A DNA stretch of 64,000 nucleotides from Candidatus Poseidoniales archaeon (GCA_038105035.1 JAYOBT010000006.1:4704-68703); one strand, 5' to 3'. Numbered from the stretch's first letter, positions 7,046-56,436 are shown. Notes: generated from the sequence alone by a model not told the origin. Translations and numbers: made by a program.

Positions 7046-7098
7046 CCCCTATCAAGGATGGTGGTCAATGCGTCAACATTGACCTTCTTTTGTTCTGT

Positions 7099-36178: not shown

Positions 36179-39100
36179 ATGGAGGAGGACGGTCTAGACC
36201 ACGACCCTGTGGAAGACGATGTTCTCCGCCAGAAAGAATTCCGCCGAGGTGGAGGAATCGACCTCGGCCAATTCATGATTCAAGAGCCTGAAAACGATGT
36301 GAAAATCGAAGAGGTCGTTCCAGAGAAGGAAACGGACGAAGCTGTTGGGGAAATCGCTTCTTTGTTCAGTTCTGAAGACGAACAAACCGACGAGCCGGGT
36401 GCCATCAAGCGTGATGGAACCGTCGATGAAGCCGCAGCACCAGACAGTGTGACCGATATGGCGGTTCATGGCGAGCGGCGGCTCGGTTATGGCCTTCTTG
36501 CGGGAATGGTTCTTGTCTGGTCTGTTTTGGGCTGGGTGGTAGGAACCGCATTGCCTCCCTTCCTCGGAGGGCCGTTGCTCATCATTATGGGCCTCTCCGG
36601 ATTATGGGCTGGAGAAAAATGGATTCCAAATCCAGCGATGCACCTTCTCGGTGTGACATGGGTCATCATTTCGATGAAAATCTTGTACGGATTTGCCCTC
36701 GATGTGCATCACTGGGGTTGGCTGGATGCTTCACCGCTTGGCGCAGATCTCTCGCTCGGCATCTTCTTGCTTGCGTTGATTGGTTTCAACGTCCTCATTG
36801 CTCAACGCCACGATGATGATGCCATCGCTGCACAAGCGACATTGGTTTTACTCGCTCTTGGGAGCGCAACTGGAGCTCTGTACGACGAACTTGGTGTTGC
36901 AGGAATGATTCTACTTGGCACCTTATCCATGCATGGTCTCGCTCTCCATCGAAAGTCAGGAAACCTAGCAAGTCTCGGCATTGCCGTATCCTATCTCTGG
37001 ATCGGACTGCATGCCTTCTCCAACGATTGGACCATCGCCAGCATCGAAATCGTTTCCTTCGATGATGACCTTCTGTTGTTCATGCTGATGTTTGCAGTGA
37101 CCGCAACCAACTCCGTAATGGCAACACAGTTCCACAAAGCCGAGAATTGGTTCTCGGCTGCTGCGAAAGCCCTCGGTCTCGGCAAACCAGGTTTGTGGGC
37201 CATCTCTGTTGGTCTTGGAATGATTGGAGCATTGCTTTCGATTGCAGCGAATCGAGACGAGACCGGTTATGCACTCGCTCAACTGCTGTTGCTCATGAGC
37301 GCCTTTGGTGGCTCCTATCTCGCTGTACGTGGCGTTGAGTGGAGGCGTCTCGCCCCGTTCATCTTGTTCCCAGCACCGTTCCTTCTGATTCTCGTGATCC
37401 TTCTCAATTTGGAAGTCGTTACCGTCGACATTGCCAATTTGAGCGCTTACAGCATCTATGCGATTCTCACAGCCCTTCTCACGACCATCGCACTGCTTCG
37501 CAATCAGCAGGCAGTTTCCGATCACGTTCTATGGATGGGTGGCATCATCATCGTTATCCTTCTAACCGTCTTGATTCCGGCAGATACCGATGGTTGGCGA
37601 CTCCTCGCCTCTCAAGCAATTGTTTGGCTTGGTCTTGCATGGCTTGGGGTCCAACGCAAATCTCCTTCCATCTCTGGAGTTGCCGTTCTGATGCCATGGG
37701 TTTGGTTGTTGATGTTTGCAACCGATGTTGAATCCCGGATGTTTTCGAACGATTTCATTCCTGTCGTCCTCGACGAGCAGCATGTTGCAGCATGGATGCT
37801 GTTGCTCGTTGTTCAGCAACTCTATGTCAACCTGAGTCAAGGTCAGGCGACGTTGAATCTTGCTGGACGATTGGCGGGTTTGAGCGAACTCGGTGCTCGA
37901 GCTCGTGATTCTGGGCTCTTGCAATTGTGGAACCTTTCGTTCGTTCTTTCTCTCGTTTCGGTATGGGGCATCACTCGCGTCGGAGGCATGCCCGCTTGGG
38001 GTCTTATCGGCATCATGGCAGCGGTCCTTGTCTTCCATGGAACCTTGGTCGCCCTCGGCCAACATCGTGGACAACCAAGAACCATGTTGGTCGCATGGAG
38101 CATCTTTGCACTTCACTTCGGATGGAAATTCGGCCATACCTCGATGTTTGCTGCTACGATGGTCGCTGGATGTTCCCTGATGTTGGTTCATACCGATCGG
38201 TTCCTGAGCGACAAAGACAACGCAAAGCGGAACCAAACCAACAGCATCGTCACCTACCAATTACTCGCTATGAGTGCCCTCCTAGCCATTCCAGCATTGA
38301 GGAACGAAGCATCGCTTGAGTTGACCAATGCGGATTGGTTCCCACAAGATGGGCAAGATGCCATGATGATGGGTCTCATCTCAATGGGGACGCTGTTCCA
38401 TTACCTAAGCCGTGTCACAAAGATGGACAAGTTGCTTCCACCAACGCTTGCAACAGTCGCCATGATTGGTTTGATGTTGTTCACTGGCACTGCACTCGAA
38501 CTTCAATTACTGACCATTATGGCATTGCTCAGTTTCGTTGGTTCAGGCGCTTACCTAGCCTTCCAAGGTGAATGGCGCTCAGGTATGCGTTCCGTCGCTC
38601 GACGCGATGAACGTTTGCGAGAAATTGAAACCAAACAGCGTACACAGATTGCATACAATCAGACACGTGAGGAGACGGGCGTTCAGTTCATCGATCCGAA
38701 GATGATCGAACTCGCTGAAAAGCAGAAGAAGCGTGCTAAACGTGCTGGCTCCACGGGTGAGATGGATCTTGAATTGGGGGATATCCAACACCGCCCCAGC
38801 ATCGTTCTCTCCTTCATTGGTGTGACGATTTTTGCCTCAACGTTCTTTGCCTACCTCAGTGGTTCTGGCATAATCGCCTTGTTGCTGATGGGTGGTATGT
38901 CCTTCCTGTTCATCAGTTTAGCACGATTGCGAGCCGATTCGCTCAACCTCCGCTTGGTCGACGTTCTCGGTGTCGAGATTCCCATTGCCGTCACGATGGC
39001 TGGTTTGGTGTTGGTTCATCTGGCATCACGAATGACGCAAGGTAGTGTGTTCCTCGAGGATCAGTATGATTTGCTAATTCTCATTGCTGGCTTGGTCGCT

Positions 39101-39976
39101 TTGGCTGGTTTTGCAATGGTAGGGCGAAACGACCTGGGCGTACGGATACCAAACGTCCTCGACATGGTCGTTGGTTTGTTGGTCATCGATCGCCTGTTTG
39201 GTGTTCTCGCTGGTGGCGAACTTCCGATTCCAACCCTTACGAATCCTCTCGAGTTTGCCGAGATGTCATGGATGGTCCCAGTCATCGGCAACGAAGTCCT
39301 GTTGATAGGTGCAGCTCTGCTGTGGAACTGGGTTGAGCGTGAACGTCAGAAACGCAATTTGCAAGACCATCGTGGTGCGCTTGGTCGTATCTCCTACGGA
39401 TTGTCTATTCTCCTTCTTTCGTTTGGACCAGCAGCCTTGGTTGCCCTTGCACTGATGTTTTTGCGTGGGTGGGAATGGAAGCAGCCAGCCGTCTTGATGA
39501 TTGGATTCATCGTTCTCCCAGTGGCCCTCAACGAACTTGTCTGGTGGGTCGAAGATGAATTCAGTCTTACCTTGTTCGAAATGTGGATGTCATCGATTGC
39601 AATTGGTACACTTGGCCTCATCGCAGGAGGACTTGCAACCTACACCAATCAGGGTCTATGGGTTTCAGCATCGCTCTGGGTTGCTCAGGTGCTCTTCATC
39701 GTCACAGGACTTCTATCGCCATCGTTGCTGTTGTTCGTCCTTCTGACCCTCGCCATGTCGACAACCTCGTGGGTGATTGGCGTGCTTACCTTACGCCGGG
39801 GATGGCGTATTGTTGGATTCCTCAACCTTGTTCTTGCATGGATCGTCGCTAGCGTGCTCATCTTCCAAGGCATGACATCCCTCGCAGCCCTGGCTCTGCT
39901 GCTCGCAACCGCAACTTTGCTTGCCATCATCACCTATCTAACGCAATCACGAGACGAATTGCTCGCATCTCAGTAA
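36179..39976 (+). CDS. giant polytopic membrane protein (1265 aa, roughly 30 predicted TM helices), function unknown
   Basis: Acidic ~100-aa N-terminus, then near-continuous hydrophobic helices. One ~90-aa charged loop interrupts them (RRDERLREIETKQRTQ...KQKKRAKRAGSTGEMDLELGD). No catalytic motif recognised. Confidence 0.65.
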   Translation: MEEDGLDHDPVEDDVLRQKEFRRGGGIDLGQFMIQEPENDVKIEEVVPEKETDEAVGEIASLFSSEDEQTDEPGAIKRDGTVDEAAAPDSVTDMAVHGERRLGYGLLAGMVLVWSVLGWVVGTALPPFLGGPLLIIMGLSGLWAGEKWIPNPAMHLLGVTWVIISMKILYGFALDVHHWGWLDASPLGADLSLGIFLLALIGFNVLIAQRHDDDAIAAQATLVLLALGSATGALYDELGVAGMILLGTLSMHGLALHRKSGNLASLGIAVSYLWIGLHAFSNDWTIASIEIVSFDDDLLLFMLMFAVTATNSVMATQFHKAENWFSAAAKALGLGKPGLWAISVGLGMIGALLSIAANRDETGYALAQLLLLMSAFGGSYLAVRGVEWRRLAPFILFPAPFLLILVILLNLEVVTVDIANLSAYSIYAILTALLTTIALLRNQQAVSDHVLWMGGIIIVILLTVLIPADTDGWRLLASQAIVWLGLAWLGVQRKSPSISGVAVLMPWVWLLMFATDVESRMFSNDFIPVVLDEQHVAAWMLLLVVQQLYVNLSQGQATLNLAGRLAGLSELGARARDSGLLQLWNLSFVLSLVSVWGITRVGGMPAWGLIGIMAAVLVFHGTLVALGQHRGQPRTMLVAWSIFALHFGWKFGHTSMFAATMVAGCSLMLVHTDRFLSDKDNAKRNQTNSIVTYQLLAMSALLAIPALRNEASLELTNADWFPQDGQDAMMMGLISMGTLFHYLSRVTKMDKLLPPTLATVAMIGLMLFTGTALELQLLTIMALLSFVGSGAYLAFQGEWRSGMRSVARRDERLREIETKQRTQIAYNQTREETGVQFIDPKMIELAEKQKKRAKRAGSTGEMDLELGDIQHRPSIVLSFIGVTIFASTFFAYLSGSGIIALLLMGGMSFLFISLARLRADSLNLRLVDVLGVEIPIAVTMAGLVLVHLASRMTQGSVFLEDQYDLLILIAGLVALAGFAMVGRNDLGVRIPNVLDMVVGLLVIDRLFGVLAGGELPIPTLTNPLEFAEMSWMVPVIGNEVLLIGAALLWNWVERERQKRNLQDHRGALGRISYGLSILLLSFGPAALVALALMFLRGWEWKQPAVLMIGFIVLPVALNELVWWVEDEFSLTLFEMWMSSIAIGTLGLIAGGLATYTNQGLWVSASLWVAQVLFIVTGLLSPSLLLFVLLTLAMSTTSWVIGVLTLRRGWRIVGFLNLVLAWIVASVLIFQGMTSLAALALLLATATLLAIITYLTQSRDELLASQ

Positions 39977-42285: not shown

Positions 42286-42546
42286 TCATCCCATGGCGTG
42301 ATAGATGCGCTTGCCTGTGGTTGCATCAAGTTTGAAGCCGATGCGGTTCTTCATATGACGCGGGATGAAGTATCCGATCTTTCGCGCGGTTAAACCATGA
42401 TTCCTCATTTTGCGTTCGTTCGACAAGTATGCAACAATATCCGCTGCCGAGCAACCTGGTCGATCTTCGATGTAGGTTGCAATCTCTGCCTTGAGGCGTT
42501 CCAATCGTGCCTCTTTTTGTGTGCCTTTTCCTTTCATTGCGGCCAT
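42286..42546 (-). CDS. small hypothetical protein (86 aa), possibly winged-helix
   Basis: The ATG at 42546 gives MAAMKGKGTQKEARLERLKAEIATYIEDRPGCSAADIVAYLSNERKMRNHGLTARKIGYFIPR... The rest of the 233-aa track ORF is antisense to thioredoxin and is discounted. Confidence 0.45.
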   Translation of the reverse strand: MAAMKGKGTQKEARLERLKAEIATYIEDRPGCSAADIVAYLSNERKMRNHGLTARKIGYFIPRHMKNRIGFKLDATTGKRIYHAMG

Positions 42547-42652
42547 ATAGTAAAGTTGTCTTTGGAAGTATATGACACATCGATGGGACCTCCTTGGGCA
42601 TCCCATGATTTTGCCGGCAAAGGTTCTTGAAACGACGGCCGACCGTTCTTCC

Positions 42653-42982
42653 ATGGGCGAAGTAAAAGCGGTCACAGATTCGGAGTTTGAAGGCGCACTC
42701 AGCGAGAACGAATGGGTTCTCGTTGATTTCTGGGCAGAATGGTGTGGGCCGTGCAAGGCCATTGCTCCTATCTTGAACGATCTTGCATCCGAACGTGATA
42801 TTCTCGTTGCCAAGGTCGATACCGATGCCAACACCATGCACGCTGCTCGACTCGGCGTACGTGGAATCCCTGCTCTCTTCTTGTTCCGAAACGGAACCAT
42901 GGTCGACAACAAAAGCGGAATGATGTCCAAGGCTGCTTTGACCTCTTGGGTCGACAACCACATGACTGCTGATGACTTCTGA
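42653..42982 (+). CDS. trxA: thioredoxin
   Basis: VLVDFWAEWCGPCKAIAPIL contains the WCGPC active site. A start at the ATG at 42653 gives the canonical ~109-aa length. Confidence 0.9.
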   Translation: MGEVKAVTDSEFEGALSENEWVLVDFWAEWCGPCKAIAPILNDLASERDILVAKVDTDANTMHAARLGVRGIPALFLFRNGTMVDNKSGMMSKAALTSWVDNHMTADDF

Positions 42983-42983
42983 A

Positions 42984-44534
42984 TCACTTGATTCGTTGCC
43001 GGCGTTCTGTTTCTGCAGAACCAACTTCACGTACAAGACGTTCACGTAGAGCTTCATGCAACCACATGCCTTGCTCCAACTCAATGAGGAGGCCATAATC
43101 GATCAATCGTTGTGGAGGCGTACCGTCCCAATCCAAACTGTTCGCAAGGGATTTCCAAGGAATCGGTTTTTCCGAAAGGGCGAGCGTTGCTAAGAGTTCT
43201 CGCTCATCGTCTGGCAGAGGTGCTAAGATTTCTTCATCCAAGAACCGCAACCAATCTTCGTGCGTTGGTTTGCCATACAATTCGAGCATTTCGATGGCTA
43301 GCGGATGTCCGCCTGTTCGCTCGTGAACATCGCTCGGGTCAACATCGTTGAGGTCAAGTTCGTCCAACCATTGTGAGGTTTCATCCAAGGATAGACCGGA
43401 AAGAGGCAACTCTTCGACAATGTCTCGAGTGTGAACATCTCTTCGATCGTAGAAGTCCAATGACGTTCGAGAGATGAGAACGAAGCGCAACGGCGTTTTC
43501 TGGGAGATTTGCAGCAATGCTCCAAGGAGATTCTTCGATTCAGATGCAATGTGATGGACGTCATCAAGAACAATCAACCAGTATGGAGGAGGGCCGCCGG
43601 GTGCGATGGAGAAGCGCTCTCGAACCGTATACGCGTCCGTCAAGTATGCAAGCAATCGACGTCGCCACGTATCAACGTCCAATGGAGCACCTGGGCGCAG
43701 AGGAAGCGTCTCAATGAGATTGTATGGGTCGTGTTTTTCATCAATACCGAATCGATGCAAAAGACTGACGGCAAGCCCAACTTCACGGTCCCAAGGTTGG
43801 CAAGGGTACCAACAGATGGACAAATTCGGTTGCTCGTCTTGCCTGCCTGCCAACCATTCTGCGACAAGCGTCGACTTTCCAATTCCTGCAATTCCAGAAA
43901 CAACAGCGAAGGCAGAACGCCCCTCAAACCATTCATCCAAACGCTCGAGTTCATCATCTCGTCCACGCATTTTTCGAGTCTGGGGGGCGCTTGTGTGATA
44001 GGTTGCATGGACGCCAGCGAGCGGCTGGAGGCGCCCTGGAGGAGGAGTTGTGTCTTCATCATCCTGCTTTTTGATAAGACCGAAACGAATGTCGCCCCAT
44101 GTAAGAACACCTTCATGTTGAGCGTGAAGAAGAACTTGCAACAACGACATGTCCGAGGCCAGACGATTGGCAGCATCCTTTGATTCAATTTCGAGAAGTT
44201 GCCCGTCCTTGTCCCGTACCAAGACCTTGGTTTCACCCAATTTATTGGTCCGAAGCTTGGCCATGTCACGTCCGTCCTCGGTCAATTGCCATGTCTTCTG
44301 ACGACGATCATCGTTCTGAATTGAACGGGTATGTTCGCTAACCCAACCTTTGCGAACGAGATCCCGCATCGTACGACTCACGTTGGGTGGATGTTGGGCG
44401 CAGGCTTCCGCAATCCCTGGGCGAGTTAATGCGGCTGTGACGATGAATCGGTCGGCGAGATGGTCATGGTGCAAGAGGTGGAGCAAGACGCGGTCTGAGA
44501 CAGCGACGTTGACTTTTGGAAGCCCCTCGGCCAT
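42984..44534 (-). CDS. wHTH plus STAND/AAA_16-type P-loop NTPase signalling protein
   Basis: N-terminal MarR-like wHTH (RPGIAEACAQHPPNVSRTMRDLVRKGWV). GRDDELERLDEWFEGRSAFAVVSGIAGIGKSTL is Walker A and YWLIVLDDVHHI is Walker B. A helical C-terminal region follows. Confidence 0.7.
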   Translation of the reverse strand: MAEGLPKVNVAVSDRVLLHLLHHDHLADRFIVTAALTRPGIAEACAQHPPNVSRTMRDLVRKGWVSEHTRSIQNDDRRQKTWQLTEDGRDMAKLRTNKLGETKVLVRDKDGQLLEIESKDAANRLASDMSLLQVLLHAQHEGVLTWGDIRFGLIKKQDDEDTTPPPGRLQPLAGVHATYHTSAPQTRKMRGRDDELERLDEWFEGRSAFAVVSGIAGIGKSTLVAEWLAGRQDEQPNLSICWYPCQPWDREVGLAVSLLHRFGIDEKHDPYNLIETLPLRPGAPLDVDTWRRRLLAYLTDAYTVRERFSIAPGGPPPYWLIVLDDVHHIASESKNLLGALLQISQKTPLRFVLISRTSLDFYDRRDVHTRDIVEELPLSGLSLDETSQWLDELDLNDVDPSDVHERTGGHPLAIEMLELYGKPTHEDWLRFLDEEILAPLPDDERELLATLALSEKPIPWKSLANSLDWDGTPPQRLIDYGLLIELEQGMWLHEALRERLVREVGSAETERRQRIK

Positions 44535-44636
44535 GTCCCGCTGTGGAGAATATCACGTTCAAGCGTTGCGATTCCATGATGCCAAATTTAAACACAAAGA
44601 CCACAACCCCTAATAATAGATAAGTGACGCGTTGCC

Positions 44637-47600
44637 ATGCAATCTAACGTGCCTCATCGGAAACCCCTGAGCGTCCTGCTCATCCTTCTGATGATTGGCG
44701 TTGTACTTACACCATTGAGCGCACACGCTGCGGATTCGGATGGAGACGGTGTCGACAACTCTGTCGACGATTGCCCATATGCTAGCGGTACATCGACGGT
44801 CGATCGAGATGGGTGCCCCGATCGTGATGGCGATGGTACGTCCGACTTGATGGATGGTTGGACGAGTCAGAATCCAAATTTCGTTCTCAATGCAAACAAT
44901 CCACGTAGCTCTGATTTCAACGATGTTGATTTCTCTCCGAACGGCTCGGAAGTTGCAACTTCAAGTGATGACGGATACATCCGAATCTGGAACACCTCAA
45001 CTGGGCAAAACACGCGCTCCGTTATCGCTGTCTCAGGCGGAGGTACAGGAAAATTGTCGTGGTCTGCAGATGGTCGCTTCATCGGCGTCACTTCTCAGGC
45101 TGCAGATGAATTTGACATCTTTTATGCATCCAACCTGACATCCGTCCATGGTGCTTTGTCATCCGACGTTGGCGGAGGCGACTACACCTATGACATTGAT
45201 ATCTCTCCTGACGGTTCTAAGGCTGCTGTAGCCATTGGCCGGTCTGGAAACGGAGGCACAAACGGTGTTGTCCGAGTTGTGGATGTTATCAATGGCACCG
45301 TTATGCAGAATCTCAATCCAGGTGGCGAAGACCGATTCCATTCCGTTGATTTCTCACCAAGTGGCTCGCACATGGCCATCGGAACGGTTGGCGATTACTA
45401 CGTCGTTGATGCTTCGAGTTGGGCAACGACCCGAAGTGAAAGCGCTCCTGCAGGTACTGTCAACTCCATTGCATGGTCTCCAAGCGGAGAGCACATCGCC
45501 GTGTGTGAAGGCTACGTCAACAGCCAGGGCGGCTCCCGATTGCGTCTCTTTGAGGTCGATGTATGGACCAACATACAGACCATCGCAGGTTCAACCTCTT
45601 GTTATGCAACTGACTTCTCGCCGGATGGCAACCAAGTTGTCTTCGGTATGGGATGGTATGCAGCAGATGGTGCAACGGCGAAGATCTATGAGGTCTCGAG
45701 TGGAACGCTCATTGACACATTTTCACAGAGTCGTCCTGGAGGATGTACATCAACAAACAACAACCAGTGCGGGCAAAACAACGGCGTCTCGTGGTCGCCC
45801 GATGGAGTCTACATCGCCCAAGCATTTGGCCGAAACAACGAGGGATTCTACATTTGGAAGAGCGACCTCGACCCGGACAACGATGGTTGGAACACCACCG
45901 ATCAAGGCGACGGTAAGGTCGATGAATTCCCAGATGATGGCACACAGTGGGCAGATTCTGATGGAGATGGATACGGCGACAACCCTGCCCCTGCACTCAA
46001 CCCTGACGAATGCCCACTTGTCTTCGGAAACTCAACCATGGACCGATTTGGCTGTCCTGATGCTGATGGCGATGGTTACTCAGACGAAAACGACTGGGCG
46101 CCGAGCAACAAAGAGCAGTGGATTGATACAGATGGCGACGGCCATGGTGACAACTATCTCTACGACATAGCCTCCAATCAACTCCATCTCAACCAGCGAG
46201 GTGATGCATTCCCGAACGACGATACGCAATGGAACGACACTGACGGTGACGGTTACGGCGACAACTACGAAGATGTCTCTTGGAACGAATACCGTGCACC
46301 TGAGTGGCCTGGTGAAATCATTGTTGGCGCTCAGAGCATCGACGTTTTCCCACTCGATCGAACCCAGTGGAGGGATACCGACGGAGATTGGGTTGGCGAT
46401 GAGCAAATGAGCGATCGAGCGGATGGTTGTCCAACGGTTTGGGGCAACTCAACCTACGACCGACTCGGATGCATTGACACCGATGGCGACGGCTACTCCG
46501 ATCCAGATGCAGGATGGCCCACACGAACTGATTGTTACGGAGCAGACGCGTTCCCGAACGATCCGACGCAATGGTGCGACGAGGACAACGATGGTTTCGG
46601 AAGCAACCCTGACGGAAACAACGCAGACGATTGTCCAAATCAAGCCGGACCTTCCTCCGAAGACCAATATGGATGTCCTGACCGAGACGGGGATGGTTAC
46701 TCGAATACGGGCGATCCATTCCCAGACGATGGCACGCAATGGGAAGATTCGGACGGTGACAACTACGGTGACAATCCTGATGGAAACAATCCAGACTTCT
46801 TCCCCGACGATGCATCACAATGGCGAGATTCCGATGGCGATGGGTATGGCGACAATCCTGGTGGCACCAACGGAGATCGATTCCCGAACGACCCAACGCA
46901 ATGGTCCGATGCTGACAACGACGGTTACGGAGACAACTTTGTCGATACCGATGGCGATGGCATTTCAGAAGGAAACTCCGACGTTTGTCCACAGACCTAT
47001 GGCGAATCCAACTCGGCATCATCCCGTGGATGCCCAGATTCCGATGGTGACGGTTTCACCGATCCTGAAGACGCCTTCCCGGACCAACCGCTCCAGTGGG
47101 CCGACCAAGACGGTGATGGTTTTGGCGACAACGTCCAGTTCACCGATGGTGACGAGTGCATCGATGTCTACGGCAAGAGCACGGAGAACGGTGTTCAAGG
47201 CTGCCCTGATTCCGATGGTGATGGTCATGCCGATCCCTTCGGTGACTTCGTTCCCAAATCCGATTGTACAGGTGCAGACGCCTTCCCGGACGACCCACTT
47301 CAGTGGTGTGACAAAGACGGTGATGGTGTTGGTGACAATTATGTCTTTACGAACATCACCGTTCCTGACGAAGAGAATACTGGATTGATGATTGAGCTTT
47401 GCGAACAAATTGGCGATGCCTTCCCGAACGATGCCACGCAATGGGCTGACATGGATTGCGATGGCCGCGGTGACAACAGCACCGGTATCGCTCCAGACGC
47501 CTTCCCACTGCGTAAGACACAGCAAGACGACAACGATGGTGATGGATACGGAAACAACTTCACAAACGGTGCATATCAACCGGACGAATGCCGAAACGAG

Positions 47601-48113
47601 TTTGGAACATCAACCACGGATAGGTACGGTTGTCCAGACAGTGATAGCGACGGTATGTCCGACTTGAACGATCCGTGCAAGTGGGACCCTGCCGTTTCAG
47701 TAGGTATTCCCGGGCAAGTCACGTGTTCGATTACAGAAGATCCAAACAAAGCCGACGAGGAAGAGACGGTTGCTGAAGTCGAGGCAAAATCATCCAATGT
47801 GATGCTGTATGCGATGGGCGGTATCATTGCGTTCATGCTCGCAGCCATTCTTGTTGCTATGCTCGCTCGACAAGCAAGTCGCAACAAGATGATGCGAGAG
47901 CGAGCCATCGAGCGAAAGGCCGAGGAACAGTTCATGGATGAAGAAGAGCGCCGCCAACAATGGATCGACTACTACGTCGCTAACGGTGAATTCGACAAAG
48001 CACGTGAACTTGGTTGGGTTGATCCTGCATCGCTTCCAGCATGGAAACAGCATGAGATTCAGCAACAAGAAGCACTCCAAGCATCCATCCCATCCATGCT
48101 TGACCTGGATTGA
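44637..48113 (+). CDS. giant surface protein: signal peptide, 2 TSP3 repeats, 7-blade WD40-like propeller, ~20 TSP3-like Ca-binding repeats, TM, ~80-aa cytoplasmic tail
   Basis: Signal peptide LSVLLILLMIGVVLTPLSAHA. Blades include FSPNGSEVATSSDDGYIRIWN, WSADGRFIGV, ISPDGSKAAV, FSPSGSHMAIG, WSPSGEHIAV, FSPDGNQVVFG and WSPDGVYIAQ. Repeated D.DGDG(Y/F/H)(G/S)D(N/P) units follow. The TM is VMLYAMGGIIAFMLAAILVAML. Confidence 0.85.
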   Translation: MQSNVPHRKPLSVLLILLMIGVVLTPLSAHAADSDGDGVDNSVDDCPYASGTSTVDRDGCPDRDGDGTSDLMDGWTSQNPNFVLNANNPRSSDFNDVDFSPNGSEVATSSDDGYIRIWNTSTGQNTRSVIAVSGGGTGKLSWSADGRFIGVTSQAADEFDIFYASNLTSVHGALSSDVGGGDYTYDIDISPDGSKAAVAIGRSGNGGTNGVVRVVDVINGTVMQNLNPGGEDRFHSVDFSPSGSHMAIGTVGDYYVVDASSWATTRSESAPAGTVNSIAWSPSGEHIAVCEGYVNSQGGSRLRLFEVDVWTNIQTIAGSTSCYATDFSPDGNQVVFGMGWYAADGATAKIYEVSSGTLIDTFSQSRPGGCTSTNNNQCGQNNGVSWSPDGVYIAQAFGRNNEGFYIWKSDLDPDNDGWNTTDQGDGKVDEFPDDGTQWADSDGDGYGDNPAPALNPDECPLVFGNSTMDRFGCPDADGDGYSDENDWAPSNKEQWIDTDGDGHGDNYLYDIASNQLHLNQRGDAFPNDDTQWNDTDGDGYGDNYEDVSWNEYRAPEWPGEIIVGAQSIDVFPLDRTQWRDTDGDWVGDEQMSDRADGCPTVWGNSTYDRLGCIDTDGDGYSDPDAGWPTRTDCYGADAFPNDPTQWCDEDNDGFGSNPDGNNADDCPNQAGPSSEDQYGCPDRDGDGYSNTGDPFPDDGTQWEDSDGDNYGDNPDGNNPDFFPDDASQWRDSDGDGYGDNPGGTNGDRFPNDPTQWSDADNDGYGDNFVDTDGDGISEGNSDVCPQTYGESNSASSRGCPDSDGDGFTDPEDAFPDQPLQWADQDGDGFGDNVQFTDGDECIDVYGKSTENGVQGCPDSDGDGHADPFGDFVPKSDCTGADAFPDDPLQWCDKDGDGVGDNYVFTNITVPDEENTGLMIELCEQIGDAFPNDATQWADMDCDGRGDNSTGIAPDAFPLRKTQQDDNDGDGYGNNFTNGAYQPDECRNEFGTSTTDRYGCPDSDSDGMSDLNDPCKWDPAVSVGIPGQVTCSITEDPNKADEEETVAEVEAKSSNVMLYAMGGIIAFMLAAILVAMLARQASRNKMMRERAIERKAEEQFMDEEERRQQWIDYYVANGEFDKARELGWVDPASLPAWKQHEIQQQEALQASIPSMLDLD
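45864..47678 (+). repeat. coding array of ~20 degenerate thrombospondin type-3-like (DxDxDGxxDxxD) calcium-binding repeats
   Basis: Units seen include DSDGDGYGDN (twice), DTDGDGYGDN, DADGDGYSDE, DTDGDGHGDN, DRDGDGYSNT, DQDGDGFGDN and DKDGDGVGDN. Spacers are of the F-P-x-D-x-T-Q-W type. Confidence 0.85.
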
Positions 48114-48167
48114 TTTACGCATGGTTTGTACCGTTGCCCTTTAAATCAATGAGAACTATGCAAAACC

Positions 48168-50747
48168 ATGGGAGAGGGGCGTATGCGTCGTCTTGTTGCA
48201 ACATCCATGGTGATGTTGCTCGTTCTTCTCATCCCAGTAAGTGCTGAAGAAACTGCCACGGTTCGTCTCGAAATCGAGACATTGGATGAGAATTCCAAGC
48301 CTTGGTATGGCGCAGGAGATCGTGTTCTTTTCGCCTCTTCCATCGTCAACGAAGGTGCTGCAACCTCAATCACTGAAGACCCGTCATGTGGCGTCATCAT
48401 GCGTGTGGCCGATGCAGCGGGTACAACCATTCTTGACGAAGGCACAACATGTCGAGGACAAAGCCGTGGTCTTGACATCGGAGCAGGTACAACAGATCTG
48501 GACCAACATTCTTGGGATTTGACCGATCAAGATGGTGAACTGGTTTCTGCAGGACTCTATTCCATCAGCATCGAACTTGCAGGATCTGGACTTTCAGCAA
48601 CATCCGAAGTTATGGTTCAACAAAACGCTGGCATTCCACCAGAGTTGATCTTCTCAACCTCCATCGCACATCGAGAAGATGTGTTGTCCCTTGGTGAGCC
48701 ATTCGTCGTCGCTTACGAACTTCACAACCCAACGTCGGAAGCTATCGACATCAGTGGTCTTGATGCTTGTCAACTTCTGATTTCCTTTGAAGAGCAACAG
48801 CTCGGCCCATCATGCAATGCAGGCACAACGACCATCGATGCCTATGCTGTTCTCGGATTGGGCCACACCATGCACCAAGCGACATCAATCGACGCCCCCA
48901 CGCTAACGATTGAAACGCCTGATGCTCAAGTCATCGGTTCGTTCGAACTCTCTGTACAAGATGACGAAACCCTCTCAACTCCGCTTGATGCCTCGGTCAA
49001 CACACTCTCGACCTCCTTCCTCCAAGGCGAATTGTTTGGAGGTTCCCTTACGCTTGAAAACGATGGAAGCGAGAACGAACTGTTGCGCTTCACCAACACA
49101 TGTCGCGCCAGCTATTGGATTGCAGGTGGCGACGGTGTTGTGTTCGATTCTCTCGATCAAGCCAACTGTCGAGCGGCTGAGCTCGACGTGATCGTGGGTG
49201 CATCCTCGCAAACCACATTCCCTCTTCAGTCCTGGGCTTTTGTCGATGAAACCGGTTGTTCCATGTTGAGCGGTGACTACGTCCTCGTCGCTGAAATACC
49301 CGAATTCGGTTACGCTGCCTCAATGGATGTTGACTACCGTCGCATTCAGTCCACAGATTGTGGGACCGTATCCGAACCTCTCACATCTCTGTCCATCGAT
49401 CTTGATGACAACGATGAAGCATTGTTCGAATTGCAACTCGTTGGAATGGACGAGGAAACCGATATTCGCTGGCTGGAAATCTGCAAGGCATCGCTCCAAT
49501 TGTGGAACCTTGACCTCACTGAGAAGGTCATTGAAAAGAACGTCCTCTGCAACAGTGATGTTCAGGTCGACCAAGCCCTTCGAATCTCCTCAGAGGATGT
49601 TCTTCGATTCGAACTTGAAGAATTGAACACCTTCGAGTACCAAGACGCGGAATATCGAGTTCGAATCGATCTGGCAACGGACCAAGATATGATGCTCGAG
49701 TATGAATTCTCGTGGCCGTTGAACGTCGATGTTGAAGAAGCGGTGATTGTTGAAGAAGACGTCGCAGCAGACGCTCCAATCGTTCTCGTCGATGGTGTTT
49801 GGAGTGGCGTCTTGACACCAGACGGAACCTGCTGGATGCTTGAAAACGATGCAGGCGTCATTCACATGCTCGCAGATGCGACCATGGCTTCTTGGGCACC
49901 AGAGCGTGGATTGACGGGCACCTACCAAGCCCAACAAACAGATGCAAACCAGGCTTGTACACGATTCACCGCTGACAGTTTCACATTTGTCGGAATTGTA
50001 CAGGAAATTCCATTGATTGAAGAATCGCCCGCTGTCGAAGAATCATCCATCGTCGAGAACGAAGTTGTCGAGCAAGAAGCGCTCCCCGCCTGGGCACCAC
50101 AAGCGGTGACTGTACTCACAGTAAGCGCGATTCTCTCCATGCTTGGCTTTGCTGCTTTCAACAACGAAGCGATTCGTATCTCGACCACTCTCACAGGATT
50201 GTGGTTCCTCGGTCTGATCGGTAAAACCTCAGAGACAAGCGATGGGCGATTCCAACGCGGACGACTGCTTGGTTACCTTACAGCAAACCCTGGTTGTCAC
50301 TTCCGTGCTCTCTTGTCTGCTTTGGACATGAGCAACGGACAACTCTCTCATCACCTTCGAGTTCTCGAACAAGAAGAAAGCATCTGGCGACGTAAGGACG
50401 GTCGCTTGGTACGCTACTACCCATTGACCAACACGCTCCATCCATTGCTTGAGGATGATGCACTACCAGTGCCAATTCTCGCTCCTGATCCTCTTTCGCT
50501 TCAAGGCAAAATTCTGGTTTTGCTCGATCATGACAGTCAAATGGGAGACTTCCCTACCCAAGCTGAACTCGCAAAGCGACTCGACAAATCCCAACAACTC
50601 ATCTCCCACCATCTCCGTACCTTGGAGAAATACGGCCTCATCGAAGGACGACGTATGGGCATGCGCAACCGCTACAAACTCACCAAGGAAGCAATGTTCC
50701 TTTTGGAGACCAGCGAAGCATACGTACAGAACGAGATGAACCTCTGA
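48168..50747 (+). CDS. membrane-anchored transcription regulator: ~630-aa extracytoplasmic Cys-paired Ig-like repeats, 2 TM, two C-terminal ArsR-type winged-helix domains
   Basis: Signal/TM MRRLVATSMVMLLVLLIPVSA. TMs are AVTVLTVSAILSMLGFAAF and LTGLWFLGLIG. wHTH 1 is GRLLGYLTANPGCHFRALLSALDMSNGQLSHHLRVLEQEESIWRRKDGRLVRYYPL. wHTH 2 is QGKILVLLDH...FPTQAELAKRLDKSQQLISHHLRTLEKYGLIEGRRMGMRNRYKLT. Confidence 0.75.
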   Translation: MGEGRMRRLVATSMVMLLVLLIPVSAEETATVRLEIETLDENSKPWYGAGDRVLFASSIVNEGAATSITEDPSCGVIMRVADAAGTTILDEGTTCRGQSRGLDIGAGTTDLDQHSWDLTDQDGELVSAGLYSISIELAGSGLSATSEVMVQQNAGIPPELIFSTSIAHREDVLSLGEPFVVAYELHNPTSEAIDISGLDACQLLISFEEQQLGPSCNAGTTTIDAYAVLGLGHTMHQATSIDAPTLTIETPDAQVIGSFELSVQDDETLSTPLDASVNTLSTSFLQGELFGGSLTLENDGSENELLRFTNTCRASYWIAGGDGVVFDSLDQANCRAAELDVIVGASSQTTFPLQSWAFVDETGCSMLSGDYVLVAEIPEFGYAASMDVDYRRIQSTDCGTVSEPLTSLSIDLDDNDEALFELQLVGMDEETDIRWLEICKASLQLWNLDLTEKVIEKNVLCNSDVQVDQALRISSEDVLRFELEELNTFEYQDAEYRVRIDLATDQDMMLEYEFSWPLNVDVEEAVIVEEDVAADAPIVLVDGVWSGVLTPDGTCWMLENDAGVIHMLADATMASWAPERGLTGTYQAQQTDANQACTRFTADSFTFVGIVQEIPLIEESPAVEESSIVENEVVEQEALPAWAPQAVTVLTVSAILSMLGFAAFNNEAIRISTTLTGLWFLGLIGKTSETSDGRFQRGRLLGYLTANPGCHFRALLSALDMSNGQLSHHLRVLEQEESIWRRKDGRLVRYYPLTNTLHPLLEDDALPVPILAPDPLSLQGKILVLLDHDSQMGDFPTQAELAKRLDKSQQLISHHLRTLEKYGLIEGRRMGMRNRYKLTKEAMFLLETSEAYVQNEMNL

Positions 50748-50826
50748 ATTCGATTCGCTGAGGTGGATTGAAGAAGGATAGCATGGAGGCGTGTTTAGCG
50801 TAGGATGTGTCGACGTGTCGGATGAG

Positions 50827-53640
50827 ATGAAGACGACGGATGAAGTTGCATGGCAACAAGCATGGACCGATGCTAACGTCTTCGGTTCAAGTGATGATGC
50901 ATCCAAACCGAAATTCTACTGTTTGGAAATGTATCCGTATCCTTCCGGAAAAATGCACATGGGACACGTTCGAAACTATTCGATTGGCGATGCTGTTGCC
51001 CGTTACAAGCGGATGAAAGGTTTCAACGTCCTTTACCCAATGGGATTTGATTCGTTTGGAATGCCTGCAGAAAATGCTGCCATAGCTGAAGGTGGGCATC
51101 CTCATGACATCACCGAGAAGAACATGGCCTCCATTACGGAACAGATCAAGCGCATGGGATTCTCGTACGACTGGAGTCGATTGGTCAAGAGTCACGATCC
51201 GAATTATTACAAGTGGAACCAATTGTTCTTCACCCGCTTTTTCAATTCAGGACTCGCCTATCGTGAGTTTGCTCCAGTCAATTGGTGCGAATCCTGTTCA
51301 ACGGTCCTTGCCAACGAACAAGTCAAAGCGGGCCGATGCTGGCGATGCAACGGTCCTGTACGACAAAAGGACATGAGCCAATGGTTCATTGACATCACCA
51401 AGTACGCTCAACAATTGCTCGATGGACTCGATACCATCGAGTTTCCAGAAAGTGTTCGGTTGATGCAAGAGGACTGGCTTGGCCGTTCCGAAGGAGCAGA
51501 AATCGAATTCGGTATTGAAGGGAGTGAGGAAACCATCCGCGTTTTCACAACCCGGCCTGACACCCTGTTTGGCGTCACCTTCGTCACGCTCGCACCGGAA
51601 CACCCCCTTGCAGAACAACTGGTCAAAGGGACCGAGTATGAGGCGGGCTGGCAAGCCATGCACGATGTGTATGCCAACATGAGCGAGTTCGATCGAATCA
51701 AGAATCTCAACAAGAAGGAAGGTGTTTCTCTCGGGCGCTTTGCTATCCACCCGCTTACTGGTGAGAAAATTCCAATCTGGGCAGGTAACTTTGTTCTCGC
51801 TACCTACGGAACGGGAGCTGTCATGGCTGTTCCTGGTCATGATGAACGCGATTTTGACTTTGCCAAAACATACGATTTGCCAATCAAGCGTGTGCTCATC
51901 GAAAACGAGAACGATGATGCTGATGAAGAACTTGAATCAGCCTATACGGAAGATGGATACATGGTTCATTCAGGAATGGATGGATTCGATGGCCGCTTCG
52001 GAGATGCTGCGCGTACGGCTGTTATCGATGCCCTCGAAACCGCTGGAAAGGGCGATCGTCGAGTCAATTGGAAGATTCGCCCTTGGCTCATCAGTCGCCA
52101 GCGTTACTGGGGCACACCGATTCCAATCATCCACTGTGAGGACTGTGGAGCCGTTCCTGTTCCTGAAGATCAACTGCCAGTTGAACTTCCACGCGACGTT
52201 GTCTTCGATGGGAAAGGAAATCCATTGGAAACATCAGAATCATTCCTTAACGTAGATTGCCCCAAGTGCGGTAAGCCTGCACGAAGAGAAACCGATACGA
52301 TGGATACGTTTGTTGATTCATCGTGGTACTTCTTGCGCTATACCGATGCCAACAACCTCGAACAATGGTACGATGCAGACATCGCTGATTATTGGATGAA
52401 CGTTGATTTCTATTGTGGGGGAATCGAACATGCACAAATGCACCTGATTTACGCCCGTTTCTACACCAAGGCGCTTCGCGATCTTGGCTTCCATAGTATT
52501 GATGAACCATTCAACGAATTGCTCTGTCAAGGCATGGTCAACAAGAGCGCCCCTTTCTGTGAAACCTGTTCCGTGACCCTCTCGGTCGATCATGCTGGCT
52601 CACCATGTCCGCATTGCAATTCACCACTCGGTGAACGCTCTGCAAAAATGAGCAAATCGCTCGGTAACACGGTTTCTCCTGAACAGATGATCGAACAATT
52701 CGGGGCCGATACGGTTCGCTTGTTCATTCTCTTTGCTGCAAATCCGACCGCTGGAATGGACTGGTCCGATTCCGCTGTTGAAGCCAATCATCGAGTGATG
52801 CAACAACTGCAAACGATGCCTGACCAACTCCTTGGATGGAACAAGCCTGCCCATTCCATCGATGATTGGATGATGGCTCGACTCCGACAACGCCTCCAAC
52901 AATGGTCCGATGCGATGGACCGATACGACTTGCGTCGAGCTGTCGAATGCTCCCACTATGACATGGTCAAAGACATCAACTGGTACGTACGTCGCGGAGG
53001 AGGCAATGCTGAAATCGGCCGAACATTGCTTCACTCATGGACCCACATGATCGGCATCGCCACACCGCATCTTGCAGAAGATTGGTGGGCGCAACTTGGT
53101 GGAGAGGGACTCCTCGCTACGCATGTCATGGACGACATTCAGGCCGTCAGCGAAGAAGATCAGGCCGTCCTCGATGGAGAAGCATTGATTCGAGATCTCC
53201 TCGAACAAGCACGAAAAGTTCGCAGTGTTGCTGAGCGACACATCGATGGGGAAGCAACATCGCTCACCATCGTCACCTCCGCACCATGGAGAAACACCAT
53301 GGCAGAAATGGCATTAACACATCTTTCCGAAGGAAACAACGTCAAGACCTTCATGGGCATTTTGACCCAATCCGAACTCGCTCAAGGTGAAACACGGGGT
53401 GAACGACTCGGATTCTGGAACAAGCGCATGCTACCTCAAGTGTTCAAGTGGGACGATGAAAAGAAGCGAATTCTTCTTTCAACACTTGATGAAACACAGG
53501 TCTATGCTAATGCTTCCAACTTCATCGCAGAAGAACTCGGTCTTGCATCGGTACGCATCGTCCGTGGTGAAGGCGAAGAGGATGAAACAGGGAAAGCAGG
53601 CGTTGCGATGCCACTTTCACCCGCATTCATCTATGCTTGA
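50827..53640 (+). CDS. leuS: leucyl-tRNA synthetase
   Basis: The first in-frame ATG is at 50827; the track start at 50791 is GTG. Contains [15 protein letters not shown] (HIGH), TRPDT, [19 protein letters not shown] (CP1 editing) and KMSKS. Confidence 0.9.
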   Translation: [937 protein letters not shown]

Positions 53641-56336
53641 GTCTCTTCTCCGACCGGTTCCGAAGAAGCCTCAGGCGCAGTTGCTGGTTCGGTTTCAAGT
53701 GTTGGAACCGCTTTCTGTTGTGGTTGATTCGTCGGTGCCTTGACTGGTTTGAACGTGAAATAGCCAGCAACACAAGCAAGAGCGAGTGCAACCAAGATCA
53801 GAATTTGATTGATTCCAAAGGAAGAATCAGAACTTTCACTCTTGTTCTCAACAATGATCAAAGTACAACCATCCGAATCGACCTGTTCGCCAAGAGGTGT
53901 TGAAGGGCATAGGTCATCATCGTTCAGGATTCCATCGGAATCAGAATCAGCTTGTTCGGAGGAACATCCCGCACCATTGACAACAGTACTCAATGGTGTC
54001 CTTGGACAGATATCGGCATCGTTGAGAACTCCGTCTGCATCGTCGTCCACGTCTTCTTCACCATCGACACATCCGTCCGCATCGAAGTCTTGGGAAGGCA
54101 ACACTGGTCCAACAAGACCACGCGGGCACAGGTCGAAGATGTCTTCGAAACCATCGCCATCGTCATCGTCGTCTTCTTCGTCATCATGGCAACCATCCTG
54201 ATCACGATCGAGTGATGTATCGGTCGCATTCCAATCTCGGAACCCCTTTGGACACATATCGAGCTGGTTCGATCCAATCATATCGAGCATCATATCGTTG
54301 TCATCATCAAGGTCGTTGATGCTGTCTTGACAACCATCACGATCCCAGTCGTTCATTTCTGTTGAATCCCACAAAGCGAGATCACGTGGACAACCGTCCT
54401 CGATGTTGACGATTCCATCCCCATCCTCATCCAAGTCGCAAGCATCGCCAATGGAGTCACCATCAAGGTCTTCCTGTCCAGCGTTTGAAGTGCTTGGACA
54501 GTTGTCACGTTGATCAACAAAACCATCTTCATCCGTATCGAAGTCTGAACATCCATCTCCCTCAACGTCGGTTTCCAGAGTTGAGACCCATCCGATTGGA
54601 CCCTTCGGACACGAGTCAAGGTGGTCGTAGACTGTGTCGTTGTCATCATCAAAATCCTCGTCTGCATCACGGCATCCATCGCTGTCGTGATCGGTTGAAC
54701 CGCTGCTTGTCCAGCCAACTTCGCCTTGTTGACAGACGTCAAGATCGTCAGCAATCCCATCGTTATCGTCGTCATCATCGCAGACATCACCAAACACATC
54801 CGATTCGAAGTTCGCTTGGTCTGAATTGGACACTCTTGGACAATTGTCGATACCATCGAGCACACCGTCACCATCAAGATCGGTCTCATAGTGCCAGACA
54901 CCACCATCTTGTCCACCTACTGAAACCACAGAATGGTTACCGTACATACCTGAATCTTCGAATGAGAAGGCGATAAGAGAACCACCTGAAGAAGAGGAAA
55001 CCATGTCGTAAACACGGTCCCGGCCATCGCTTCCACCAGTGAGCGCCCACAACCAACCATCATTGAAATCGTATTCACCGAGGAAAATGTCGGTTCCAAA
55101 GTACCCCGTATCATCGTCGTAGTCAACCAAGGTTTCGCCACCGAGGGTGAACGTATACGTTGTCACACCAGCATAGATGACCGAACCAGATGCTGTTCGA
55201 TATGCTGCACTGTACATATCGTAACCCGAACCACCCTCAACAATGAGTCCGTCCCAGGCCCCATTGGTGGTGATGTCGGCTCGGAAAGCATCGAACCATT
55301 GTGTGGTCTCACTGTAATCCGTCCCGAACGTCGAATTGCCCTCAATGGTTCCGTAGACTTGCACATCCAATCCAGCCCCTGCAACGCAGCCGTTGACCAG
55401 GTCGTCGCCTGTGCCACCCGCTTGTTGCAACCAAATCCAACTGGCCGCATCGTATTTGGCGACAACGATGTCACCGCCACCGTTTGAATCAATAGAACCA
55501 ACCTCATCGAATGCGAGTTGTCCAATGAACGTGAAGGCGATGAACGTATCACCAACGCTGTTCTGACAGAAGCCACCAAAGGGCTCAACACCGTCTTCTG
55601 ACATGGCAGTAAATCCGTTGGTGAAGGTTCCGTATTCATCGAAAAGCATCACTGCAAGACTGGATTGGGAGCCACCAGCAAAAATGGTCTGATTCATATC
55701 AAGAAGTTCCTTGAACAATACACTCACATGGATTCGATCGTATTCATCAACAAACATATCGAACATCAAAATCTCTTGTTGGTTAGAGATGGAAACAGCC
55801 CATTGCCAACCAGTTTCAACGTCGTATCGAGCGATGTAGGCATTGCCCTCGTCAGAATCTGAATCCTTGTCCAATGTTGGAAGAGACCCCAAGGTCATGT
55901 TGCATTGAAGGCCTGCACTGCCAAGGCAATAATTGCCTGCAATGATGAAATCACCATCGCTCATCAAAGCAAGAGCATCCACGGAATCGACTCCGATGCT
56001 ACCGAACGATTCACTGAAATTCCAATCGTTGGTCTCGTTCGAGATGGCAATGAAACCATCCATGTCATCGAATCCAAGCTGGTTGGAATCGTGTCCGTTA
56101 TCGCCAATCAAGATTGAAGAAGTGAAACTACCGCCAACGAGAACGGAGTTGTTGGATAGAGGTGCAAGTGCATTGATGGAATCTTCTCCAAAGCCACCAA
56201 CTGTGACTGCCCATCCCAACGGTTCCGACTCCTCACCGTTGAATTGTGGAGAAATTTCAGCATCGAGAACCTCTGCTTGAGGGTGAGGCATTGTTGCGAG
56301 AAGGAGTGCAAAAACGATGAACAATGGACGAAGCAT
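53631..56336 (-). CDS. giant surface protein: signal peptide, SBBP-like beta-propeller region, ~10 Cys-containing TSP3-like repeats, C-terminal TM
   Basis: Start set at the ATG at 56336 (MLRPLFIVFALLLATMPHPQA). The N-terminal half has repeated ..GG.G.D......D.....G.F.. propeller-like units. Next come DLDGDGVLDGIDNCP, DHDSDGCRDADEDFDDDND, DLDEDGDGIVNIEDGCP and DSDSDGILNDDDLCP. The TM is ILILVALALACVAGYFTF. Confidence 0.8.
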   Translation of the reverse strand: MLRPLFIVFALLLATMPHPQAEVLDAEISPQFNGEESEPLGWAVTVGGFGEDSINALAPLSNNSVLVGGSFTSSILIGDNGHDSNQLGFDDMDGFIAISNETNDWNFSESFGSIGVDSVDALALMSDGDFIIAGNYCLGSAGLQCNMTLGSLPTLDKDSDSDEGNAYIARYDVETGWQWAVSISNQQEILMFDMFVDEYDRIHVSVLFKELLDMNQTIFAGGSQSSLAVMLFDEYGTFTNGFTAMSEDGVEPFGGFCQNSVGDTFIAFTFIGQLAFDEVGSIDSNGGGDIVVAKYDAASWIWLQQAGGTGDDLVNGCVAGAGLDVQVYGTIEGNSTFGTDYSETTQWFDAFRADITTNGAWDGLIVEGGSGYDMYSAAYRTASGSVIYAGVTTYTFTLGGETLVDYDDDTGYFGTDIFLGEYDFNDGWLWALTGGSDGRDRVYDMVSSSSGGSLIAFSFEDSGMYGNHSVVSVGGQDGGVWHYETDLDGDGVLDGIDNCPRVSNSDQANFESDVFGDVCDDDDDNDGIADDLDVCQQGEVGWTSSGSTDHDSDGCRDADEDFDDDNDTVYDHLDSCPKGPIGWVSTLETDVEGDGCSDFDTDEDGFVDQRDNCPSTSNAGQEDLDGDSIGDACDLDEDGDGIVNIEDGCPRDLALWDSTEMNDWDRDGCQDSINDLDDDNDMMLDMIGSNQLDMCPKGFRDWNATDTSLDRDQDGCHDDEEDDDDDGDGFEDIFDLCPRGLVGPVLPSQDFDADGCVDGEEDVDDDADGVLNDADICPRTPLSTVVNGAGCSSEQADSDSDGILNDDDLCPSTPLGEQVDSDGCTLIIVENKSESSDSSFGINQILILVALALACVAGYFTFKPVKAPTNQPQQKAVPTLETEPATAPEASSEPVGEETQA

Positions 56337-56436
56337 AGTCTTGTGATGAACTGCCACTTCATGAAGGTGTTGCGTTACAGTCCATTCACTTGTTTGTGAC
56401 GATTGGTTCAAAGACGGTCGACGTCGAGGTCCAACC

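Follow-up and report, generated by a model that had tools for sequence, protein, structure and literature searches.

Marine group II (MGII) archaea are known to carry many genes for thrombospondin-like and Ca-dependent adhesion proteins, which have been reported in terms of gene presence (Rinke et al. 2019, PMC6461757; Orsi et al. 2015, PMC4511931). These proteins are secreted, membrane-anchored giants with acidic DxDxDGxxD repeats, occur in many copies and have been proposed to act in attachment, and the same traits recur at the locus described here. It occupies positions 42984 to 56336 of a 64,000-nucleotide stretch of DNA (the window; GCA_038105035.1, JAYOBT010000006.1:4704-68703) from a Candidatus Poseidoniaceae (MGIIa) archaeon, and consists of the genes for a winged helix-turn-helix (wHTH) NTPase of the STAND type (here STAND), a WD40-headed stalk protein (G1), a membrane-tethered regulator (Sensor), leucine-tRNA ligase (leuS) and a second surface giant (G2). 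The earlier reports contain neither the STAND-G1-Sensor-leuS arrangement nor the propeller heads or the polymorphism of a head, and the repeats of G1 differ from the published ones in falling under the Pfam cutoff for the thrombospondin type 3 (TSP3) family TSP_3.

TSP3 repeats are also found in the Myxococcus surface proteins TraA/TraB and MtsC, and the polymorphic head of TraA on its conserved body is a conceptual parallel to G1. However, the model for MtsC (NF047638) scored 105.6 against a cutoff of 350 and that for TraB (NF033763) 23.9 and 17.1 against 700, no MYXO-CTERM or OmpA domain is found here, and the host is an archaeon without an outer membrane. Abundant planktonic prokaryotes carry hypervariable surface genes, a theme treated under 'metagenomic islands' and the constant-diversity model, and there, as here, surface-exposed parts differ sharply between near-identical genomes. 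What is swapped at the present locus is one domain inside a syntenic core gene rather than a whole island, and the allele lineages appear older than the genera. The component families and the MGII 'thrombospondin adhesins' are already known; what is new in the literature searched, as far as our searches show, is the order-level conservation of the arrangement and the domain-level reassortment of G1 head alleles. The literature searches gave nothing specific on HVO_0163, after which the family of Sensor is named, or on hypervariable MGII surface proteins.

The reading that we favor, with a probability of roughly 55%, is that this is a long-conserved MGII neighborhood with an old three-gene core and a later G2, that its giants are likely surface recognition or attachment proteins, and that the head of one of them is exchangeable. 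The old core would consist of a sensor-less wHTH-STAND NTPase, the divergent G1 and a transmembrane one-component Sensor, directly upstream of leuS. G1 would hold a WD40 propeller off the cell on a Ca-binding TSP3-like stalk, Sensor would have two winged helices in the cytoplasm and five beta-sandwich modules on the outer side of the membrane, and G2 would have been added at the leuS 3' end in the Poseidoniaceae lineage only. The features concerned, in window coordinates, are these.

42984-44534, minus strand: wHTH-STAND NTPase, 516 amino acids, with wHTH matches and AAA_16
44637-48113, plus strand: G1, 1158 amino acids, type-I membrane protein
44877-45866, plus strand: variable head cassette of G1 (WD40 propeller, residues ~81-410), marked by a drop in identity
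48168-50747, plus strand: Sensor, 859 amino acids, putative one-component regulator
50815-53640, plus strand: leuS (leucine-tRNA ligase), TIGR00396, housekeeping gene
53631-56336, minus strand: G2, second type-I surface protein

We followed this arrangement in the leuS neighborhoods of 29 relatives and in a distribution sample that covers the order Poseidoniales with 151 genomes from 22 genera. Every same-genus genome with enough contig has the order thioredoxin (trx), STAND, G1, Sensor, leuS, G2, TPD, GHMP kinase, RpoD, and the complete series recurs in every Poseidoniaceae locus for which the sequence extends far enough. The shorter series, in which STAND and G1 diverge and Sensor and leuS follow G1 on the same strand, is kept in 15 of the 22 genera and in three families; 80 public-genome loci retrieved via STAND likewise showed it wherever the contig was long enough. 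G1 orthologues (1140-1260 amino acids, 15/22 genera) are invariably divergent from STAND, and the 15 genera with a G1 head are also those with a full-length Sensor. Seven genera with small genomes lack the two and have only 350-390-amino-acid C-terminal relatives of Sensor, at other loci. In the STAND tree the seven genera without G1 and Sensor form one clade, that is, one change, and a single deletion, or alternatively a single gain by the sister group, would account for the pattern. STAND itself is placed between an S15 peptidase gene and ribulose-phosphate epimerase (Rpe) in that clade.

G2 has a distribution of its own. Its head is found only in Poseidoniaceae (family f1), in 68 of 75 genomes, and the other seven all belong to genus g12; judging from these genomes, G2 was lost in one g12 sub-lineage, which keeps STAND, G1 and Sensor. 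In families f2 and f3, four genomes keep STAND-G1-Sensor-leuS without G2, with leuS abutting TPD, and in nine small f3 genomes G1, Sensor and G2 are all missing near leuS. G2 and leuS would be neighbors of a putative STAND-G1-Sensor unit, not members of it. At one g12 locus (L121, genome G041) an extra 682-amino-acid open reading frame (ORF) with TSP3 repeats lies between G2 and leuS at 5061-7109, and the 3' side of leuS seems to be a favored site for surface-protein genes.

The exchange of the G1 head is evident at several levels of comparison. Against the closest relative (96% identical in LeuS and 98% in STAND), DNA identity drops from ~85% to 47-54% across the WD40 propeller only and then recovers; at the protein level the borders of the head fall at residues ~80/81 and 410/420, within conserved acidic repeats that flank it. 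Within the genus, the G1 stalk is 79-98% identical, the G1 tail 71-98% and the Sensor wHTH part 83-100%, and the outward parts range far lower (G1 head 41-97%, Sensor ectodomain 41-94%, G2 head 43-95%); the G1 tail is 97.5% identical where the head is 46%. In a set of 68 loci, pairs at least 95% identical in STAND had heads that were 42-99% identical and stalks that were never below 85%. The window's species group, set beforehand by STAND identity, is monophyletic in the STAND and stalk trees and occupies four places in the head tree, each of which adjoins heads from other genera. Forcing the group to be monophyletic in the head tree cost 626 log-likelihood units (approximately unbiased (AU) test, p = 4e-71). 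Heads of the same type from different genera have diverged to much the same degree as the sequences that flank them (for example, 64% versus 59-65%), so the head alleles would be old and reassorted, not recently imported, and the allele lineages appear older than the genera. The G1 head behaves as a swappable cassette, whereas the stalk, anchor and tail that carry it are conserved; such a pattern suits a domain that binds ligands or acts in recognition at the surface and is under balancing or diversifying selection. The tree of the Sensor ectodomain, by comparison, is congruent with the species groups and fits fast but vertical evolution.

Two further observations concern these outward parts. 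Loci L016 and L018 (genomes G023 and G022) share 95-99% identity across LeuS, TPD, the G1 stalk and the Sensor wHTH part, and their ectodomains are only 55% (Sensor), 59% (G2 head) and 68% (G1 head) identical, all three having diverged together. Some genomes have two G1-type genes, in tandem in G071 (C27:18033-22726) and G150 (C3:8330-12975) and on two contigs in G025; their heads are 36-43% identical to that of the window, and they are not matched by a second full-length Sensor.

The layout of G1 runs from a signal peptide through two short acidic TSP3-like repeats, the WD40 propeller, a ~630-residue acidic stalk with 18 DxDxDGxxD motifs in its long array and a transmembrane (TM) segment to a charged, conserved tail of 76 residues that is predicted to be cytoplasmic. 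The propeller scored 48.3 bits with WD40 (PF00400; cutoff 27), and residues 88-395 partly match many WD40 propeller families. G2 has a signal peptide, a beta-propeller of ~450 residues (40-486, mature numbering), a Cys-bearing TSP3 array, a TM segment and a short low-complexity tail. Its array is canonical enough for TSP_3 (PF02412; 65.1 bits against a cutoff of 25, in four stretches), and NCBI names the orthologues 'thrombospondin type 3 repeat-containing protein'. SBBP (PF06739) was not hit directly by the G2 head in Pfam and is carried by remote homologues at E 1e-11 to 1e-13; the AlphaFold2 (AF2) model of the head has a predicted local distance difference test score (pLDDT) of 88 and its top Foldseek match is the CylK propeller (E 2e-15, TMq 0.67). 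On these models the N-terminal domain of G2 is predicted to be an SBBP/CylK-like beta-propeller. Most likely, G1 and G2 are Ca-dependent surface recognition or attachment proteins, for which we infer both the Ca binding and the adhesion.

A sequence-only reading of the window, which preceded this work, had described the five ORFs and their domain layouts, and all of them are present; its start for G2 at 56336 agrees with the orthologue lengths of 901-909 amino acids, and the overlap of 10 nt between the 3' ends of G2 and leuS (53631-53640) was confirmed. It had also argued that the two giants, with their different propellers and TSP3 subtypes, are not products of a recent duplication, and we concur because G1 and G2 resemble each other at the level of repeat motifs only (BLASTP E 0.002). 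The architectural grammar to which it drew attention, from signal peptide to C-terminal TM segment and tail, is present in both giants but is the default among the giants of this genome.

STAND is a single-copy, vertically inherited core gene of Poseidoniales, being found once in 148 of the 151 genomes and in all 22 genera at 47-98% identity; outside the order we found only wHTH-STAND paralogues of 750-1000 amino acids that are 25-33% identical. The protein begins with a winged helix with matches of the Crp/MarR type, followed by AAA_16 (PF13191) at residues 190-352 in Pfam (48.6 bits against a cutoff of 32.6), and its nearest sequence in the PDB is the archaeal STAND protein PH0952 (6mfv; E 1.4e-6 over residues 320-509). 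A repeat sensor at the C-terminus is typical of many STAND proteins, although it is not obligatory. No such repeats (TPR, WD40 or LRR) were detected here in the family search, and ~100 helical residues follow the NTPase. STANDs of the MalT and PH0952 (6mfv) type share with this protein the AAA_16/NOD module, a helical arm and a DNA-binding effector domain. It differs from them in being 516 amino acids long without TPR, WD40 or other repeats, in having the wHTH at the N-terminus and in being an order-specific core orthologue.

Sensor combines a signal peptide, an ectodomain of ~610 residues, a TM segment at 643-664, a juxtamembrane helix and two wHTHs. The ectodomain is modeled as about five Cys-paired beta-sandwich modules (residues 30-615, AF2 pLDDT 85-92), for which Foldseek matched only strings of macroglobulin-, Ig- or FN3-like domains. 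Inside, HVO_0163_N covers residues 696-753 and an ArsR-type wHTH residues ~790-843 (PF24266, 51.6 against a cutoff of 31; HTH_5, 40.1 against 22; NF033788, 63.4 against 55), and this cytoplasmic module is near-invariant. It is unlikely that a second hydrophobic helix (667-684) spans the membrane fully, because a cleaved signal peptide and cytoplasmic wHTHs need an odd number of membrane passes. The double-wHTH module occurs at the C-terminus of proteins of 180-1460 amino acids (350 representative clusters at E<=1e-10) with very different N-termini, and by these matches Sensor would be a new member of a Pfam-defined, functionally uncharacterized HVO_0163-like double-wHTH family (PF24266 plus ArsR). 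HVO_0163 is itself annotated only as an ArsR-type regulator (PMC10294847). The C-terminal module is common to Sensor and that family; what sets Sensor apart is its ectodomain of about five Cys-paired beta-sandwiches without a known ligand. Regulators of the ToxR/CadC type resemble Sensor in uniting on one polypeptide a sensing part outside the cell, an anchor in the membrane and a DNA-binding part in the cytoplasm, although the orientation is reversed in Sensor, where the predicted DNA-binding domain is C-terminal.

One possible link within a putative STAND-G1-Sensor unit is that G1 would be regulated from the divergent promoter region common to it and STAND. The upstream regions and the elements in them, none of which is assigned a strand, are as follows.

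44535-44636: STAND/G1 divergent intergenic region, with two genus-invariant blocks (28 genus loci aligned)
44553-44567: TCACGTTCAAGCGTT, ~-20 to -33 of STAND, invariant within the genus
44600-44616: ACCACAAnnCCTAATAA, with a TATA-like element ~-27 to -20 of G1, invariant within the genus
48114-48167: G1/Sensor intergenic region, with the invariant GTTTGTACCGTTGCCCTTTAA at 48124-48144 (21 genus loci aligned)
56337-56436: G2/TPD divergent intergenic region, with two conserved blocks, ACTGCCACTTCATGAAGGTGTTGCGTT towards G2 and GACGATTGGTTCAAAGACGGTCGA towards TPD (15 genus loci aligned)

Across genera, a TATA-like CCTTTTAT ~25 nt before G1 and a TTGAR element ~27 nt before STAND survive, and from these positions the STAND/G1 region would contain two back-to-back core promoters with short or absent leaders. 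TTTAAA at 44586 was considered as the TATA box of G1 and rejected for lack of conservation; the element that is conserved is CCTAATAA (44609-44616). We also considered whether the invariant block of 15 nt in front of STAND might be a shared operator and discarded the idea, as the block occurs once in the window and is not enriched near other genes; it fits a core promoter because only the fixed-distance TTGAR is kept at the family level. Sensor, with a TATA-like CCCTTTAA ~-30 to -23 of its ATG, may well have its own promoter and a leaderless or short-leader mRNA. The Sensor/leuS intergenic region contains the genus-invariant block GGTGGATTGAAGAAGGA. In general, the conserved blocks of the intergenic regions occupy positions expected of core promoters. 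Upstream of G2, at a distance of 14-40 nt (window 56350-56376), is a perfect palindrome of 10 bp, CTTCATGAAG; it is kept in most genus members and altered in L010 and L014, whose G2 heads differ in class.

That STAND, G1 and Sensor form a functional unit is plausible, although we would place it a little below even odds. Several results weigh against it or against other parts of the favored reading: (i) the co-absence of G1 and Sensor is a single event on adjacent genes and is therefore uninformative on coupling; (ii) STAND is kept where G1 and Sensor are absent, so its role is not confined to them; (iii) leuS, TPD, GHMP kinase and RpoD are equally syntenic, and synteny is not discriminating; (iv) the longest words common to the four intergenic regions are 6-7 nt (P = 0.4-0.9 versus shuffles), and the conserved upstream blocks, when searched for within the window, were not repeated at other genes and gave no common operator-like motif; (v) the AF2 model of the cytoplasmic part of Sensor is of low confidence and (vi) TSP_3 (PF02412) reached only 16.6 bits in G1. 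Because the last score falls under the Pfam cutoff of 25, we call the G1 repeats TSP3-like, and they would represent a divergent rather than a canonical subtype.

The competing explanation that survives best, although we hold it to be unlikely, is that the neighborhood has no common function and reflects stable gene order and a high density of giants, with STAND and Sensor regulating unrelated targets. The host genome, a 1.86-Mb metagenome-assembled genome that is 86% complete, has 125 ORFs of at least 800 amino acids, which make up 26% of its DNA; ~72 of the 125 have an N-terminal hydrophobic segment and many a C-terminal one, and ~28 ORFs of the genome have at least three TSP3-type motifs by motif count. 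Two giants in 13 kb are within chance because the genome is so dense in giants and TSP3-type ORFs. The same explanation can point to housekeeping genes of the stretch that are equally syntenic, to a G1/Sensor co-absence that counts as one event and to the retention of STAND elsewhere without either gene. It does not sit easily with a head-to-head STAND/G1 pair that persists, with a gap of ~90-220 bp, in 15 genera despite a protein divergence of ~50%, nor with the rearrangement of the rest of the leuS upstream region in the clade without G1 and Sensor. A mobile or foreign island was also considered for the locus and ruled out on its flat GC (0.49-0.54, with no compositional anomaly) and the vertical inheritance of the genes.

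A bolder version of our own reading would have G1 as a polymorphic recognition receptor, with WD40 head alleles older than the Poseidoniaceae genera and maintained by balancing selection (kin or partner recognition, or virus escape), whose near-invariant tail feeds STAND or Sensor; this would be an outside-in circuit of an undescribed kind, and we consider it a long shot.

The sequence-only reading had gone further in another direction, uniting all four genes in one regulated Ca-dependent attachment system in which Sensor and the STAND switch choose the adhesin that is displayed. We find this improbable. All four genes are indeed syntenic throughout Poseidoniaceae, and the proposed check on co-occurrence holds for STAND, G1 and Sensor over three families but not for G2, which is separate, nor for STAND, which persists alone; of the three families with STAND, G1 and Sensor, two are without G2, which was also lost in the g12 sub-lineage, and STAND is a core gene independent of both giants. 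Co-loss, which was put forward as a further check, is seen for G1 and Sensor in the seven genera, but as a single event in one clade, and STAND and G2 are not co-lost; a functional cluster marked by co-loss of all four members in several independent events was not found among the 151 genomes. Likewise, the search for motifs shared between 44535-44636, 48114-48167 and 56337-56436 yielded none beyond chance, and there is no motif common to the upstream regions. A point in favor of the four-gene system is an 837-amino-acid wHTH-STAND paralogue that likewise lies amid giant secreted and pilin-like genes. It is encoded on another contig (C64:15275-38129) among giants of 1463, 1806 and 1916 amino acids and three genes with archaeal pilin-like N-termini; the association is suggestive, although it is to be expected fairly often at such a density of giants. 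Another comes from L010, L014 and L018, in which Sensor ectodomain and G2 head have each diverged strongly. We considered this covariation as a sign of coupling (partial Mantel r = 0.84) and set it aside as largely an effect of phylogeny and rate, because the housekeeping GHMP kinase control gives r = 0.70. Of the attachment system as originally proposed, the Ca-binding surface proteins are well supported, but regulators that select the displayed adhesin are not.

We think it very improbable that G1 is a polymorphic self/non-self recognition or virus receptor rather than a substrate adhesin, kept diverse by negative frequency-dependent selection and signaling through its tail to STAND or Sensor. 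At least four old head lineages in one species group, with their nearest relatives in other genera, speak for such a receptor, as do the highly conserved stalk, TM segment and tail (97.5% identity in the tail where the head has 46%) and a STAND without sensor repeats of its own; against it, STAND persists without G1, and TraB and MtsC of Myxococcus resemble G1 and G2 in their TSP3 repeats only, with scores far under the family cutoffs. Finally, the notion that STAND is an Avs-like anti-virus defense sensor with no relation to the surface proteins, for which one could cite its STAND NTPase architecture and the hypervariable genes nearby, is hardly credible given that STAND, G1 and G2 matched zero families among the PADLOC models, that STAND has a wHTH only and no effector domain, and that it is a single-copy vertical core gene (47-98% identity), unlike patchy defense genes.

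Some observations bear on the neighboring genes. LeuS matches the bacterial-type model TIGR00396 at 901.7 bits (cutoff 548.4), and the protein appears mixed, as residues 18-801 match the bacterial-type model (902 bits) and residues 618-947 match archaeal-type models (279-335 bits). Its start is likely the GTG at 50815, and neither 50791 nor 50827, because ATG/GTG-TCG-GA is conserved in this region (with ATG as the start in a sister clade) and the upstream frame holds TAA in relatives: the codons before 50815 are not conserved and six relatives have an in-frame TAA there. On the other side of the locus, an ORF of 233 amino acids (42286-42987, minus strand) that overlaps the STAND stop and is seemingly co-conserved was considered as a fifth gene of the module and ruled out as an antisense artefact; the true gene opposite it encodes thioredoxin (42572-42982, plus strand; PF00085, 98 bits) and converges on the STAND stop. 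The final 86 codons of the 233-amino-acid ORF possibly constitute a small gene of their own, which has paralogues on contigs C72 and C74. Elsewhere in the window, an ORF of 1265 amino acids (36179-39976) has zero Pfam matches.

MGII are the most abundant archaea of the surface ocean and are uncultured, and this locus is a concrete, conserved candidate for how they recognize particles, algae, each other or viruses. If the link between STAND, G1 and Sensor fails, the locus is one more set of MGII surface giants. If it holds, the locus would provide a testable handle on the niche and host specificity of MGII and would also exemplify the reassortment of alleles at the level of a domain within a syntenic core gene of archaea.

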